36,138 bases of DNA from Candidatus Aenigmatarchaeota archaeon (lineage in GTDB: Archaea > Aenigmatarchaeota > Aenigmatarchaeia > Aenigmatarchaeales > JACQIB01). Positions within the stretch are counted from its first letter, which is position 1. The number at the start of each line of letters is the position of its first letter. The notes under the pieces were generated by a model. That model had not been told where the DNA came from, ran no database searches, and worked only from the letters and a program-made list of their open reading frames with translations. A program made the translations under genes and the position numbers. The stretch is from assembly GCA_038999215.1 (NCBI GenBank), contig JAWABM010000006.1:1-36138 (forward strand). The letters are read 5' to 3'. Below are positions 2,495 to 12,771 of the stretch, one piece after another.

Positions 2495-3574
2495 ATGGCG
2501 AAATACGACATAAAGCAGCTGCTCATGGAAAAGGCTCCAATGATAAACAGCATAATCAAGAAGTACATACCTGAAAAATATGACAAGGAATCGATGATAT
2601 TCGCGGCAGGCAAGGCCAGATACGAGTACAACATCGAGGCGCCGAACGTAGCCATAGCCGAACCCATCTGGGAGTTCCTCAACAGGGGAGGCAAGAGATG
2701 GAGGCCGTCGCTGTTTCTGCTTATCCTAGAGGCGCTCGGCGGAGACGTGAAGAAGGTTTCGGACTATGCCATAATACCCGAAGTCGTGCACAACGGCACA
2801 TTAATGATTGACGACCTCGAGGACTCGAGCCTCGAGAGAAGGGGCAAGCCCTGTACGTACATACTTTATGGCACGGACATAGCGGTCAATGCCGGCAACA
2901 TGATGTATTATCTGCCTTTGCTTCCGCTTATAAAGAACGTGGGCAACCTGCCATGCGAGACCAGACTGAAAATATACAACACCTACAGCCAAGAGATGAT
3001 CAACCTCTCGCTAGGGCAGGCAATGGATATAGCATGGCACAAGGGCATGGCGAACGCGGACGCTGTGAGCGAGGCCGAATACCTTCAAATGTGCGCATAC
3101 AAGACAGGCACACTCGCCAGAATGAGCGCCAAGATAGCGGCCATACTTTCAAATGCGAATGATGACACTGTCGAAAAAATCGGGAGGTTCGCGGAAGCGA
3201 TAGGGGTCGCATTCCAGATACAGGATGACATATTAAACCTCACTTCGGAGGAATTCGCCTCAAAGAAGGGGGGATTTGGCGAGGACATAACAGAAGGCAA
3301 GAGGACCTTGATGGTAATACATATGCTCAAGAAAGCTAGCGAGCCGGACAGGAAGAGGCTCATAGAAATTCTCAACATGCATACGACCGACCAGAAGCTC
3401 AGGGATGAGGCAATAGCGCTCCTGAAGAAATACGGCACAATAGACTATGCGAAAGAATACGCTAGGAAGCTTTTGGTGGAGGCGTGGGCGGAAACGGACA
3501 AGGTGCTGAGGCCGAGCGAGGCCAAAGAGAAGCTGAGGGCGTTCGCTGACTACCTGGTTGAAAGGAAAATCTGA
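2495..3574 (+). CDS. trans-polyprenyl diphosphate synthase (GGPP synthase family)
   Basis: Motifs GGKRWRP, FARM DDLED..RRG, GQAMD, KTG, SARM FQIQDD and [12 protein letters not shown]-like AAGGGGG precedes the ATG at 2495. Confidence 0.93.
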
Positions 3575-7406: not shown

Positions 7407-7710
7407 GGTGTGCTGGACATAGCCCGTCTTCTGTGGGGCGAATCAGCGCCGCGAACGGCGCGTCCTTTGCATCGCCCGGCAACATCTGTCTTAGCTGCCT
7501 ACCCGCCCCTCTTTCCTCATCAGGGCCTACTTGGCATTGCACCGCGCCGGCATTGCCGTGAGAAACCATTACGCTCCTCTTCGGCTGCCCTGACCTCTCG
7601 GCCATGCCACTTGGTGGCGGCGCCTTTGACGGTGGACGGAACTTCCTCGAACCCTTTTCAGCGAAAAGCGTTCACGGAAAAGGATCCGGCGGTTGCCTGC
7701 CCAGCTCACC
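7407..7710 (-). ncRNA. rnpB: RNase P RNA
   Basis: The sense strand has CR-I GAGGAAGTTCCGTCC and CR-V ACAGAAGACGGGCTAT (P4). P1 is GGTGAGCTGGGCA/TGTCCAGCACACC and P2 is GGCAAC/GTTGCC; P3, P15/16 and an extended P19 are also present. TATA-like TTTTAAAA lies about 25 nt upstream. Confidence 0.93.
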
Positions 7711-7750: not shown

Positions 7751-8047
7751 TCAGCGCTTCAGCGGCTTTGGTTCTATCTTCAGGACGGTGTTGTCCATCA
7801 GCCTGAAATGCTCGTCGAAATAGGACCCGCATTCGCCCCTGTAGACGAGCGCCTTGCCTCCGTAGCGGGTCTCCATGACCGCGGGCATGAGCTCGCACTG
7901 CTCCCCGGGCCTCTTGAAGCCGTTGTTGCTGCAGTGGCCAACGCCTATCGAGTTCTGGCCGTAATCCTCGGTTATGCCTGTAACATAGGGGCAAAATACC
8001 GGCTTTTCTTCAGATCTCCCCTTTTTAGGCTGATCCTTTTGTTCCAT
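7751..8047 (-). CDS. hypothetical protein (98 aa, 4 Cys)
   Basis: The ORF fills the gap between the 23S 3' end and rnpB, with a TATA-like element upstream. No family recognised. Confidence 0.55.
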   Translation of the reverse strand: MEQKDQPKKGRSEEKPVFCPYVTGITEDYGQNSIGVGHCSNNGFKRPGEQCELMPAVMETRYGGKALVYRGECGSYFDEHFRLMDNTVLKIEPKPLKR

Positions 8048-8207: not shown

Positions 8208-8244
8208 TGCCGTCGCAGGAGCGCGCTTTTAAGGAGGTCTAAAC
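8208..8244 (-). other. 3' arm of the pre-23S BHB processing stem
   Basis: GTTTAGACCT-CCTT-AAA-AGCGC-GC-TCCTGCGACGGCA pairs with the 5' arm at 11677-11713. Confidence 0.9.
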
Positions 8245-8521
8245 AAAAGGCCGTTGGGCGCAGTGGGCTGAAATGGTCGCCGAAGCTTCCATCTTACACC
8301 CCTGCTCCATCAAACAGGTCGTCTAGCCTGTGGCCAATTGCCTATTTTTCCCGAACGCTTCAACCTTAGATGCCTTCAGGCTTTAGCGTCTATGGCGTAG
8401 CTATCCGGCGTTACCGCAAGATAACCGGTGTACCAGAGGCCACGAGGGGGCGTTCCTTTCGTACTTGCCCCTTCTTCGGGTCAGGCAAATGCACCTTCAG
8501 CAGATATAAACCGTACTGTCT

Positions 8522-8917
8522 TTGTCGTTCGGTGTGGGCCGCGCTATCACAATTAAATTGTGCGAGACAATCTTGAGGGCTCATCAGCTACTCTTGTTTC
8601 GGCACGTAGCCATTGGGGCGGTCCAGTCATTGCCCGGACTGCCTCGCAAAAAACCTATTCCATACCCTGGTATACCGCAGTCATCGATATGGCTACCAAA
8701 CTCTGAAAGTTTCGGTCACAGCCGGAGCTAACGCTCGGTCTATGCGGTTCATCTTAGGGATATGGAAAGCAGGATCGGTGGTGACTTCATTTATCATCCG
8801 CACGCATCAACCGCTGTCGCAGTCTGCTTTCACCTGCGCGCGTCTAGCTATCGAAATAACCCATCCTCATTCCCTGCTTGAAAGACCCGTTGAATCATGC
8901 GCATCCCACTACCAAAT
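8522..8917 (-). other. archaeal BHB intron 1 in 23S rRNA (396 nt, after the G2597 equivalent), no ORF
   Basis: The 4-bp helix GTCG/CGAC carries TGA and AAA bulges, and the intron stem is TTTGGT-A-GTGGG/CCCAC-ACCGAA. Cutting after the 2nd bulge nucleotide restores CGTCGTGAGACAG. Confidence 0.92.
8767..8879 (-). ncRNA. intron-encoded box C/D guide module with three K-turns
   Basis: The 8-bp terminal stem is AAGCAGGG/TCCTGCTT. Box pairs are C ATGAGGA/D CCGA, D' TAGA/C' ATGATAA and inner GTGAAAG/TTGA. Guides match 9211-9220 and 9007-9015. Confidence 0.72.
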
Positions 8918-9081
8918 CACGACGTACTGAACCCAGCTAATGTCCCCCTTTAATCAGTGAACACCTGCACCCTTGGCTACAGCTGCGCAGCCAGGAGGGG
9001 GGAAGCCGACAGCGAGGTAGCAACGCGCGGGGTCGATAGGAGCTCTCGCCCGCCACGACTCGGTTATCCCCGGGGTAGCTT

Positions 9082-9207
9082 AATCAGGTTACGGGCACCG
9101 AATGCGGGCAGAGGCCGTCTTCCCGACAATTGCAACTCGTCATGGCTATCGCCACAACTGATTCCAAAATTAAAGACCGCGTCTCTGCCCGCCCGATATC
9201 CGAAACT
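9082..9207 (-). other. archaeal BHB intron 2 in 23S rRNA (126 nt, after the A2433 equivalent)
   Basis: The helix TCAG/CTGA carries AAA and TTA bulges, and the long intron hairpin includes a perfect GCGGGCAGAG/CTCTGCCCGC. Splicing restores TCAGAAAAGCTACC. Confidence 0.93.
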
Positions 9208-11676
9208 TTCTGAAGTCACCGGCATCCATCAAGGACAGACTGGTGTATCGCTAGCCCACGCTTTCGCGGCTGGATCCTTTACTTTGAAGGGTCCAGTCAG
9301 GCTTCCTTTTGCGCTTACACTCTACTCCCGATTTCTGACCGGGATGAGGAAACCTTTGGGCACCCTTGATCTTCTGTCAAGGGTGTACCGCCCCAGCCAA
9401 GCTGTCCACCAACCGGTGTCCCCCCGAGTTGAGGGTTAGCCATATGTTCACAAAATGGCAGTGTTACATTGTCGCCTATCCGATGCCCAAAAGCATCGGC
9501 ATGACGGCTCCTGCCTACGCTATGAAGCCGCAAACATACAGCAACGACAGGCTACAGCAGAGCTCCACGGGGTCTTCTCTTCCCTCTGAAGGTCTGTGGC
9601 CTATTCACCACAATAGCAGGTTCGCCGGGTTCCAACCCGGGACAGCGAGGATGTCGTTAACCCCTTCATGCAGGCCGACAATTAATCGGCAAGGGATTAC
9701 GCTACCTTAAGACGGTCAGAGTTACCGCCGCCGTTTACGGGGGCTTGGCCCGGTTGAGACCGGGTTTAACACACCCGCACTGGGCAGGACTCACTGACTA
9801 TACTCAGGATTTCTCCTTAGCAGTCAGCTATGTTTTTGTTAAACAGTCGCATCCTCCTTGTCACTGAGACCTACCTGATCGCCAGGTAGGCAAGGGTTCT
9901 ACCGAAGATACCCCTCTAATTTGCCGAGTTCCCTGGATTGGTGTCTCCCGTGACGCCGACGCCTTCTCAGCAAGAGTCACCTGTGTCGGTTCTTGATACG
10001 ATCGCGCCCAATCCGACAGGCCTCATTTTCATGGGCTCCCGGAATCGCCCGAACCCCGGTATACACCAGGGCTGTTATCGCCTTCGCCCGGTTCTCTCCT
10101 TGACGGAACTTCCCGGGATTGAACGGTTAACTTGCGTCGGACTATCCTGAAGCGTCTGAGGCCTGCCTTGCGTTGCCGCGTGTATGGCCGCGGTGCAGGA
10201 ATATTAACCTGCTTCCCTTTCCCGTCCGTCAGTTAAGGGGACGGTTAGGATCGACTAACTCCCGGTTGATAGACATTGCCGGGAAACTCTTGCTCTTCTG
10301 GCGGTTAGGATTCCAACCTAACTTTGCTGCTACTAACAGCAGGATTCTCATTCCCGCGCGGTCCACGCCTGCTTGCGCAGACGCTTCCGCCCGCGCGGAA
10401 CGCCTCCCTACGCTATGACTTTCGTCATCTGGGGTCTCGGTGGTGGACTTACTCCCGTCCATCTTCACCGCACTGCTCCTCGATGGGTCCGCTGTTACGC
10501 GTTGATTATCGGGTGGCTGCTTCTGAGCCTACCGTCCCACTGTTTTTGGAGAAGCACCAGCTTTGTGACTTAGCCCACACTTTGGGACCTTAACCCCAGG
10601 CCAGCTTGTTTGCTCTTCGGATACCAAGCTTACCCCGGTACCCTCACTCCCGCCTTCTACGACGCCGACAGATTATGAGTTTGACAGGAACGTCAGAGGT
10701 TTCCCTCCGTATCATCCCAATCAGTGCTTTACCCCATCGGCGGTCTCCAGCGAGGCTGTGCTGAGGCACATTTCGAGAGGAACCAGCTATCACCGCTTTC
10801 GATTGGCTTTTCACCCCTATGCCCAGGTCACCTGGCCGATTAGGATCAGGATCAGTAGCGGGCCTCCACGCGGCTTTCGCCGCGCTTCGCCCTACCCAGG
10901 TATAGATCAAGCGGTTTCTGGTATTATCCCCGTGACTCCCCGCCCTTTCAGACGGCGCCCCTGGTTGCCTGCGGGCATGTCGCTTTCGCTGCGGCTACGC
11001 GCACAGCGCTTAACCTTGCCACGAGAATAAACTCCCTGCCACGTGTTTCGAAACGGAGATCATGACGCTGCAAAGCCCTCCTCCTACACACCCATTTCTG
11101 GACTTTCGTTCGGAAGGCCGCCTTTCACGCCATGACTGACTATCACTGGCTGGTTTCAAGCTCTTTTCATCTTCTATGAAGAATGCTTTTCAGCTTTCTC
11201 TCACGATACTTGTTCGCTATCGGACTCCGGACATATTTAGGGTTGGATGTTGATGCCACCCGTCTTCCCACAGCATATCCGAGCTGAGGTACTCGATTTC
11301 CGCAATCACCTTTCCTCCCTTCCCCTAAGGGGCTATCACCCTCTATGGCACGCCTTTCCAGGCGACTTCGGGTCAGAAGGCGAAGGTGTGCGCGGCTCCC
11401 ACATCTCCCTGCGTTTCCGCAGGGATTCGGTTCGCCCTGCTCCGCTTTCACTCGCCGTTACTAACGGAATCGCATTGCTTTCTCCTCCTCCGCTTATTAA
11501 GATGCTTCATTTCAGCGGGTTCCCTTTCCCCGAAGGGAATGCCGGCCGAAGCCGGCGTGAGGTCACATTGAGCAATCCACGGTTCTAAGGCCGCTTGCGC
11601 CTCGCCGTGGCTTATCGCAGCTTGCTACGACCTTCATCGGTGCCGGAGCCAAGCTATCCACCAGACAGTTTGTGGT

Positions 11677-11713
11677 GTTTAGACCTTTACCTTAGCACTT
11701 TCCTGCAACGGCA
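11677..11713 (-). other. 5' arm of the pre-23S BHB processing stem
   Basis: TGCCGTTGCAGGA-AA-GTGCT-AAGG-TAA-AGGTCTAAAC forms a 4-bp AAGG/CCTT helix between the 3-nt bulges TAA and AAA. Confidence 0.9.
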
Positions 11714-11737
11714 TCATCGTGAAATAAATTTCACTAC

Positions 11738-11809
11738 GGAAGCTCTAACGACCGTCCTGAAGTCATCACCCTGCGGTTCCTCAGGTGTTCTGCTCTTATC
11801 ACAGCTCCC
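11738..11809 (-). ncRNA. box C/D sRNA in the 23S 5' leader (predicted Cm1920-equivalent guide)
   Basis: Terminal stem GGGAGC/GCTTCC encloses C GTGATAA, D' CTGA, C' GTGATGA and D TAGA. The D guide AGGACGGTCG is complementary to 9709-9718. Confidence 0.78.
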
Positions 11810-12116
11810 TTCTTCTACCCTTCCACCGCCAACGGCATCTGTCGCGGTGTGCATCCTTTGCCGTCCTTTACCCCGTGGGTCGGTCATCGCCTTCCGGCTC
11901 CGCAGACAATACACGGACCAGTCATGCGGCAAGCCATGCTGATGCATGACAATGATAGTTGATTTCGATGGGTTTTGATAAACCCAAAGGAATTTTGACC
12001 CTTTAAGGTCAGAAAAAGCGTCATCTCGTCGCCGATTCAGCCAGGTTTCCAATGAATTCCTAATCGTTGAACATACAAAGCCACCTTTATGGCAAGTATA
12101 TAGTGCCTCCCGAAGG

Positions 12117-12130
12117 TATTTAAAGGTTTT
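12117..12130 (-). promoter_or_regulatory. BRE/TATA promoter candidate for the 23S transcript
   Basis: AAAACC-TTTAAATA on the minus strand, which implies a leader of about 400 nt. Confidence 0.6.
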
Positions 12131-12189
12131 GACGGCGACTGCAAACGCAATGCGGTAGTATTTATCCTTTTTCTGCGCATTATTCTTTC

Positions 12190-12771
12190 ATGCAGAAGCC
12201 GGCATACTCGCAATCGATAGTGGAGCAGGCGAGATTCATAGACGATTTCTCGACATTCATGAACAGCGTGGGCGACTGCTGGATAGGAGGAGGTTGGTGC
12301 GCATCTCTGATAACCGAGAGACTCCAGAGGGAGCACGGCGGGGTCGATCTGTGCGCAGAATCCAGCAACAGGGAGGACATACTGGACTATCTTCTCGACA
12401 ACGGGTTCTCCATAAGAGCGCAGACAAAGAACAAGCTTATAGCGAACAAGGATGATCTGAGGGCGTACATAGTGCTCATGGACTACGCCAACGGATGCTT
12501 CATGTTTTCGACCGAGAAATTCTACAAGAACATAAGGGTGCCGAAGGAATTCTTCAGGCGCCACGAAGGAAGCATAGAAGACCTAGGTCTTGCGGCGATA
12601 ACGCTGACTCCGGCCCTGTTCGTGAGCTCGAAGAAGGCGTACGGGAGCCACATGCGGGACAAGGACCTTTCGGACATAAGGGCCGTCGAAGCAAAGCTCG
12701 CGGAAGAAGGAATGGAAAAAGAGAGGGAGCTTTACGAGAAGGAGAGCAGGGAACTCCTGGCCTACAGGTAG
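12190..12771 (+). CDS. nucleotidyltransferase-fold protein (ANT(2'')/LnuA-like), possibly catalytically degenerate
   Basis: WIGGGW, R-E-H-x-x-V-D and C-terminal RDKDLSD patterns. Confidence 0.6.
   Translation: MQKPAYSQSIVEQARFIDDFSTFMNSVGDCWIGGGWCASLITERLQREHGGVDLCAESSNREDILDYLLDNGFSIRAQTKNKLIANKDDLRAYIVLMDYANGCFMFSTEKFYKNIRVPKEFFRRHEGSIEDLGLAAITLTPALFVSSKKAYGSHMRDKDLSDIRAVEAKLAEEGMEKERELYEKESRELLAYR

Follow-up and report, generated by a model that had tools for sequence, protein, structure and literature searches.

What does a box C/D-like RNA do in the 5' leader of a 23S ribosomal RNA (rRNA) gene, and which nucleotides does it address? The question is raised by contig JAWABM010000006.1 of a Candidatus Aenigmatarchaeota genome, whose positions 1 to 36,138 (36,138 nucleotides, nt) are called the window below. 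An earlier note, made from the letters of this stretch alone, had described a complete box C/D small RNA (sRNA) upstream of the 23S gene and had predicted that it guides 2'-O-methylation of C1920 (Cm1920) in helix 69. The element is a 72-nt unit of box C/D type with two guides, which occupies 11809..11738 on the minus strand, between a conserved putative promoter box and the 23S gene and outside the processing stem of the rRNA. We consider it likely that the 5' leader of pre-23S rRNA here contains, in this unit, a double guide of box C/D type that serves two sites, Um2552 in the A loop and Cm1920 in helix 69.

The genome of this DPANN archaeon (G000) comprises 571 kb in 24 contigs and is 88% complete, and the window is its contig C6. 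It was compared with the genomes of relatives, which carry the other G-numbers; G001 belongs to the same genus as G000. The order sample held 42 genomes and the phylum-wide sample 151.

Anatomy and conservation of the 72-nt unit

All the letters listed in the earlier note were found again at 11809..11738 on the minus strand. They comprise the 6-bp stem together with box C (11802-11796), CUGA (11784-11781), a canonical C' heptamer (11769-11763) and UAGA (11747-11744). Parsed together with its relatives, the unit has the following parts.

11804..11809, minus strand: 5' strand of the terminal stem, 6 bp with 11743-11738
11796..11803, minus strand: box C strand of the terminal kink-turn (k-turn), with a 3-nt bulge at 11803-11801, the sheared GA at 11800-11799 and stem II at 11798-11796
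11782..11795, minus strand: D' spacer of 14 nt, with an antisense core at 11790-11782 that forms 9 bp with the A loop; its fifth guide position (N+5), 11786, lies opposite U2552
11778..11781, minus strand: D' box AGGA in the homologous register, from the ungapped alignment to relatives
11768..11777, minus strand: hairpin closing the internal C'/D' k-turn, 3 pairs, all changed on both sides
11760..11767, minus strand: C' strand of the internal k-turn, with a bulge at 11767-11765, GA at 11764-11763 and stem II at 11762-11760
11748..11759, minus strand: 12-nt D guide, which forms 10 bp with helix 69 (3' strand); N+5, 11752, lies opposite C1920
11744..11747, minus strand: box D UAGA, family consensus NNGA
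11738..11743, minus strand: 3' strand of the terminal stem, pairing with 11809-11804

The internal boxes of this parse differ from the canonical-looking ones. The homologous D' box is AGGA at 11781-11778 and not the CUGA 3 nt upstream, because the sequence after the antisense core aligns without gaps with that of the relatives. Likewise, the homologous C' GA is 11764-11763 and not the first GA of the canonical-looking heptamer. Only the homologous register provides 9 contiguous bp and an N+5 at U2552 for the D' guide, together with a C'-to-D spacer of exactly 12 nt. The canonical-looking register yields a D' duplex of 6 bp and a D spacer of 15 nt instead.

The consensus boxes (RUGAUGA and CUGA at the ends) are absent from G000, whose box C has one mismatch and whose box D is UAGA. 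They are not kept across the family either, and the earlier description of the boxes as complete was not borne out. Degenerate boxes do not disqualify the unit, because an engineered guide lacking the C/D motifs can still direct methylation (PMC9670817, as far as that source was available).

The family parse comprised 14 double-guide units; the second half of the G032 unit, with a D spacer of 10 nt by eye, was excluded from the counts. In the terminal k-turn, the closing C-G pair and the D-strand GA were present in 14 of 14 units and the C-strand GA in 13. The internal C'/D' motif consists of NNGA, a hairpin or short loop, and a 3-nt bulge with GA, and its 4b-4n pair was a standard one in 13 of 14 units. 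The D spacer measured 12 nt in 10 of the 13 parsed units, 13 nt in two and 17 nt in one.

The named structure was then scored on alignment A2, where 87.3% of cells were paired compared to 63.1% after shuffling. None of 500 shuffles reached this value, and the best slid control gave 48.9%. The four pairs of the terminal stem beside the k-turn were 100% paired in the 14 units, and three of these four changed on both sides. In the internal hairpin 93.3% of cells were paired, with double-sided changes in all three pairs. RNAalifold alone predicted only the terminal stem and left both guides open.

A covariance model, R1, was built from the 14 homologous units. It matched its own genome once (E 1.9e-14), and it matched 20 of the 42 genomes of the order, including G000, once each. 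In the phylum-wide sample 16 of 151 genomes were matched, and five of these 16 belong to different orders within the class. The six matches within the order that came from outside the training set all lay 40-70 nt upstream of the 5' end of 23S, as did both inspected matches from outside the order. A comparison of 23S leaders in relatives had been proposed in the earlier note, and with these 20 matches in the order and five in other orders it found the architecture conserved. In three genomes the unit has one guide, that for the A loop: G004 and G018, which were weak R1 matches, and G013, recognized by parse. The 7-nt core of the A-loop antisense was present upstream of 23S in 21 of 24 leaders, once as a one-letter variant; the leaders of G010, G012 and G017 were without it. 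No relevant Rfam family was found for the unit at gathering or permissive thresholds, and a permissive cmscan of 11650-12250 returned one spurious match to a long non-coding RNA (E 2.8).

Predicted target sites in 23S rRNA and guide-target co-evolution

The positions in 23S rRNA were numbered by alignment to the annotated 23S rRNA of E. coli. The two target sites are 632 nt apart in that numbering.

9709..9718, minus strand: helix 69, 3' strand, addressed by the D guide; the C1920 equivalent is 9715
8959..8967, minus strand: A loop (helix 92), addressed by the D' guide; the U2552 equivalent is 8963

The pairing of the D guide with 9718..9709 was reproduced as described in the earlier note, with 10 bp of which two are G-U. 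The alignment also upheld the assignment of 9715, the nucleotide facing the fifth position of this guide, to C1920. No 23S target had been reported there for the D' guide. In the homologous register its core, 11790-11782, is complementary without a mismatch to the A loop at 23S positions 2720-2728 (window 8967-8959), with N+5 at U2552.

Both nucleotides are known methylation sites. U2552 is a quasi-universally conserved Um site of the A loop; it is modified by RlmE/RrmJ in bacteria and, by prediction, in Haloferax, and with a guide RNA in the yeast cytoplasm (PMC2584109, in the sections available). PMC4644070, available in part, gives it as a predicted C/D target in five of seven archaea and describes helix 69 as a hotspot of methylation. 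TlyA is the enzyme for Cm1920 in some bacteria, as the earlier note had stated and as the available part of PMC7317525 confirms.

Within the order, neither helix 69 nor the A loop varies, which leaves no test of covariation between guides and targets: in the 12 other genomes of the order whose helix 69 was read over its full 3' strand this strand was identical, and so was the A loop in six. In all seven genomes of the order with both sequences, a G stands opposite C at N+5. Five genomes of other orders (G058, G071, G093, G138 and G161) have A1910 and U1920 in helix 69, and in all five the D guide carries A instead of G at N+5; duplex tables were made for three of them. As a rule, methylation requires a Watson-Crick pair at the target nucleotide, which would explain the change from G to A in the guide. 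A second covariation was seen in G071 and G093, where guide position 2 changes from U to C and A-loop position 2549 from A to G. The prediction of a C/D guide in the 23S leader aimed at C1920 thus gained in silico support from conservation, stem covariation, the 12-nt spacing of the D guide and covariation at N+5, while its internal D' and C' boxes had been placed 3 nt out of register.

Other D guides of the order vary more. The guides of G008 and G020 have changed from C to U, and they would still pair, by G-U, if helix 69 of these genomes, which lies outside the fetched stretch, matches that of the 12 relatives in the order. In G007 the D guide is swapped for one with an 11-bp match to a neighbouring site with N+5 at C1934; this match was scored on the 23S rRNA of G000, since that of G007 is cut by a contig end. 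Different D guides with no clear target found are present in G029, G032 and G035, and no convincing target was found for the D guide of G016.

These comparisons bear on an alternative in which the unit is an ordinary leader structure whose GA dinucleotides and short 23S complements resemble a guide by chance. Two controls are in keeping with it. A loose scan for the architecture returned 22 matches in the genome compared to 9-15 in shuffled genomes, and only the leader unit and an RNA on contig C3 looked real among them. Furthermore, nine-nt complements between leaders and 23S rRNA were no more frequent than in shuffles, and a signal was present only in the positioned guides. The specific element, however, occurs in a single copy, lies beside 23S wherever the flanks were checked, and recurs across the class with covarying stems and guide-target covariation. 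By the single R1 match and the structure scores against shuffles, the element exceeds chance. The comparative data already speak against a chance resemblance, which we regard as most improbable.

Two further features of helix 69 were observed. Its loop (window 9716-9724, minus strand) has C at the position of E. coli A1916, within the order as well as in those other orders that were examined. In or directly behind the helix 69 target, the 23S gene is broken by large insertions, presumably introns, in five genomes (G004, G038, G017, G021 and G016; loci L038, L040, L041, L045 and L046, respectively). The break falls after the 1923 equivalent in G017 and G038 and after the 1927 equivalent in G004, G016 and G021. 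In these five genomes the full guide duplex would be possible only on spliced rRNA.

Proposed methylation, pairing and the mode of action

In the reading we favour, transcription would start at the upstream box, and L7Ae would bind both k-turns of the unit, the terminal C/D motif and the internal C'/D' motif closed by its hairpin. Nop5 and fibrillarin would then assemble on these k-turns with their non-consensus boxes. The nucleotide facing the fifth guide position would be 2'-O-methylated by fibrillarin, so that the 23S rRNA, whose transcription follows directly on that of the unit, receives Um2552 and Cm1920. The guide may act in cis on the same precursor, or in trans once cleavage at the processing stem frees the leader. 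G000 encodes L7Ae and an overlapping Nop5-fibrillarin gene pair (operon).

Several points weigh against this reading. Both duplexes are short, at 9-10 bp. The D' spacer varies from 12 to 15 nt across the family, with 14 nt in G000, and is not a strict 12. The family departs from the box consensus, with a pattern of a 3-nt bulge, AUGA plus A/U-rich positions, and box D NNGA. Stem II is mostly A-U or U-U and not U-U plus G-C; in eukaryotes stem II matters for Nop56/58 assembly, and assembly of the small nucleolar ribonucleoprotein depends on it. In G001 the terminal k-turn has GG for GA, that is, G-G for the second sheared pair. The single-sequence fold of G000 pairs the two guide regions with each other over 7 bp, though by RNAalifold the pairing lacks conservation. 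Between its promoter box and the unit, G000 has one run of five T, at which part of the transcripts could end. The guide-target covariations probably trace to one or two evolutionary events. No RlmE/RrmJ orthologue was found in G000, but at the completeness of this genome the gene could be missing from the assembly. Finally, among four public runs compared in the form of contigs (three RNA and one DNA, with one RNA run from the likely source study), RNA covered only a conserved 23S segment and none of the leader. This zero cover is uninformative either way; 20 public runs were listed, and most of the stretch was present in only one DNA run.

The search for a stand-alone U2552 enzyme was extended to the order, where no genome of the 42 scored above the cut-off of the rrmJ equivalog model (best 31.7 bits over part of the model), a strict cut-off that only 2 of 14 control genomes passed. 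Four weak FtsJ matches in G000 were rejected as RlmE candidates; they are a permease-methyltransferase fusion, a PRMT-like protein, a Trm5/TYW2 enzyme and a generic methyltransferase.

Part of these weaknesses would suit leader elements that serve only as antisense chaperones or timers. Such elements would pair transiently with helix 69 and the A loop, use the k-turns as a scaffold for L7Ae, and delay or order the folding of domains IV and V without methyl transfer. The degenerate boxes, the non-canonical stem II and the imperfect terminal k-turn of G001 are consistent with this alternative. So is the 632-nt distance between the targets, compared to 100 nt or less for most Pyrobaculum dual guides in the available part of PMC7994747, and chaperone roles have been proposed for archaeal C/D ribonucleoproteins (PMC3608112, seen in part). 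Against it, U2552 and 1920 are precisely the nucleotides to which the 12-nt D spacer and the fifth-position rule point, and the guide changes from G to A where the target is U1920, though a G-U pair would suffice for mere pairing. Fibrillarin is also kept in all 42 reduced genomes of the order, and G000 offered no canonical C/D RNAs for it to use: strict, one-mismatch and C...D-with-stem scans and a spacing histogram over the whole 571-kb genome found none, with no excess of 12-nt spacing. A purely chaperoning unit is unlikely in our judgement.

A variant of the methylation-guide reading is that the unit is a strictly trans-acting sRNA. The leader would merely host its expression, an RNA of about 70 nt would be trimmed after bulge-helix-bulge cleavage, and this RNA would act on other pre-23S molecules. 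The position of the unit outside the processing stem agrees with this. Archaeal C/D sRNAs mature from longer transcripts regardless of their flanks (PMC7994747, in the part available), and in vitro work on the guide in the tRNA-Trp intron favours trans action (PMC2584109, likewise). The strict linkage of one copy per 23S across the class, wherever flanks were checked, is equally expected of a cis role. We hold strict trans action to be a real possibility, with somewhat less than even confidence, and nothing in these data separates cis from trans action.

As a guide for methylation, the unit can be compared with several known systems. It shares the double guide, the terminal stem, two k-turn motifs and the 12-nt D spacer with the archaeal C/D sRNAs for U2552 and helix 68-71 (PMC4644070) and with yeast snR52 (Um2921; PMC2584109), both as described in the sections available. 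The fifth-position rule, the target U2552 and a protein set encoded in the genome are also common to them. Judged by its letters, the unit may function like an archaeal double-guide C/D sRNA: it lacks the consensus boxes but has the geometry, targeting and co-evolution of such a guide, with a D spacer of 12 nt and a D' spacer of 14 nt. It differs in its degenerate boxes, in an internal k-turn closed by a hairpin and not a K-loop, in having no Rfam match, and in its genomic context. In the part of PMC7994747 available, archaeal C/D genes are free-standing with independent promoters, overlap the ends of open reading frames (ORFs), lie in clusters, stand beside or are fused to tRNAs, or occupy tRNA introns; rRNA leaders are not among the contexts given there. 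In open-licence papers and bioRxiv preprints, including the available portions of PMC6009581, PMC3608112 and PMC8339473, we found none that describes an archaeal rRNA leader with a C/D guide in it.

The closest parallel in arrangement is the C/D guide in the intron of pre-tRNA-Trp in Haloferax and others, which also carries guide and targets in one primary transcript and raises the same question of cis or trans action (PMC2584109, in part). The present unit is hosted by an rRNA leader, has its targets about 2.0 and 2.8 kb further downstream and not a few nt away, and would be released via the rRNA processing stem. The protein enzymes RlmE/RrmJ (Um2552) and TlyA (Cm1920) 2'-O-methylate the same nucleotides but are protein-only (PMC2584109; PMC7317525, both in part).

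The idea that a pre-rRNA spacer may itself carry the function of a trans-acting C/D-type RNA has precedents. Dennis et al. in 1997 reportedly described U3-like sequences in cis in the prokaryotic 5' external transcribed spacer, and Tang et al. in 2002 are said to have recovered k-turn RNAs from archaeal rRNA spacers. Unlike the present unit, those proposals concern the 16S leader and processing or folding, and they involve no full double-guide module for methylation.

If the unit acts as we propose, a guide for Um2552 rides on the rRNA precursor, whereas box C/D guides are normally separate genes, and guide dosage and timing would therefore be coupled to rRNA synthesis. It would account for the retention of fibrillarin and Nop5 in DPANN archaea with genomes below 1 Mb even though consensus scans of G000 found no C/D sRNAs. 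It would also show how much the box sequences can change in guides that retain k-turn geometry, the 12-nt ruler and the fifth-position rule. The unit offers a natural system for cis versus trans guide action and for the proposed chaperone role of double guides, and the covariance model and box pattern can be used to annotate guides that consensus-based finders miss.

Other guide-like RNAs and the transcription unit

The unit is placed within its transcription unit as follows, in the order of transcription.

12117..12124, minus strand: putative TATA-like promoter box TTTAAATA of the 23S transcription unit, proposed from the conservation of the octamer
11858..11932, minus strand: second C/D-like double-guide unit, U1; D guide antisense to 23S 2062-2070, N+5 at C2064 (window 9571)
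11701..11712, minus strand: 5' strand of the 23S processing stem, 12 bp (one G-U) with the trailer at 8220-8209
8235..11686, minus strand: 23S rRNA gene, Rfam LSU_rRNA_archaea, 2407.8 bits

The antisense 9-mer of U1 was present, with at most one mismatch, in 11 of 21 leaders, and in seven of these 11 the full unit could be parsed with a covarying terminal stem. No convincing target was found for its D' guide.

A free-standing RNA with the same degenerate-box architecture is located on contig C3 of G000 (3124-3193, plus strand; locus L101:325-394). It has a 7-bp stem, an internal hairpin with a UUCG loop and its own AT-rich upstream box, and homologues were found in G001 and G013. Its D' guide forms 9 bp with the decoding centre of 16S rRNA, with N+5 at E. 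coli C1402. No convincing target was found for its D guide, whose near-matches lay in coding sequence and not in tRNAs. A conserved core in this D guide looks like a complement of the 16S 3' end, but it matches over only about 7 bp.

The 16S leader of G000 contained no unit comparable to the 23S-leader guide. A 9-nt complement to the 530-loop region of 16S (CCGCGGUAA) lies there, 212 nt upstream of 16S on contig C5, partly in a hairpin and without k-turn features. By their predicted targets, the degenerate-box RNAs appear to be a small repertoire specific to this lineage and directed to ribosomal sites with methylation in other organisms too, as expected of a real guide system.

A bolder reading joins U1 to the 72-nt unit and lets pre-23S rRNA guide its own modification. 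At least two C/D-type modules would assemble co-transcriptionally, act in cis on U2552 of the A loop, 1920 of helix 69 and C2064 of the peptidyl-transferase region, keep domains IV and V tethered while these fold, and take the place of RlmE and other stand-alone enzymes. We put this forward as a tentative and rather doubtful extension. If it is true, fibrillarin is retained largely for guides encoded in the rRNA transcription unit.

The promoter octamer TTTAAATA lies 438 nt upstream of 23S. Of the leaders of 21 relatives, 16 contain one exact copy, and in each of them it precedes the unit. The 23S gene, 11686..8235 on the minus strand, has no adjoining 16S gene. The leader-trailer helix starts at 11712, 25 nt downstream of the 72-nt element, which agrees with the distance of about 25 nt given in the earlier note, and helix 1 of 23S lies inside it. 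Equivalent leader-trailer complements of 11-15 nt were present in seven relatives (G010, G012, G017, G018, G026, G031 and G034).

Downstream of 23S, the RNase P RNA occupies 7709..7408. A small ORF at 7753-8046 on the minus strand lies between the 23S terminator region and the RNase P RNA. It contains, at 7789-7778, a 12-nt perfect complement of the D-guide region. A long-range leader-trailer helix with this segment was considered and rejected, because the segment is within the small ORF with its own upstream signals and beyond the T-rich terminators after 23S; the complement was judged to be due to chance. A 112-aa mechanical ORF that overlaps the leader was ruled out as coding, since gaps of 1, 1, 2, 3 and 3 nt in the alignment of G000 and G001 destroy the frame.

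Both rRNAs of G000 are long. The 23S rRNA has 3452 nt compared to 2987 positions in the model, with about 120 extra nt between the 2064 and 2552 equivalents and more downstream. The 16S rRNA (contig C5, 16024-17971) has 1948 nt compared to 1478 in the model.

Further conserved elements were observed in the leader. At its start, around window 11995-12066 on the minus strand, a conserved element has CUGA followed by a 3-bp hairpin, which bears a GNRA loop and covaries among relatives, and then GAUGA and a U-rich stretch. It is flanked by a 6-bp outer stem without a terminal k-turn and holds the leader's only run of five T. Two other conserved elements, 11815-11831 and 11706-11720 on the minus strand, bracket the 72-nt unit in many relatives. 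One is GGUGGAAGGGU-like, and the other is a segment of GAUGA plus the processing stem with a small hairpin before it. The two can pair, over 8 bp with several G-U in G000, and this pairing suggests a larger leader fold from which the unit projects.
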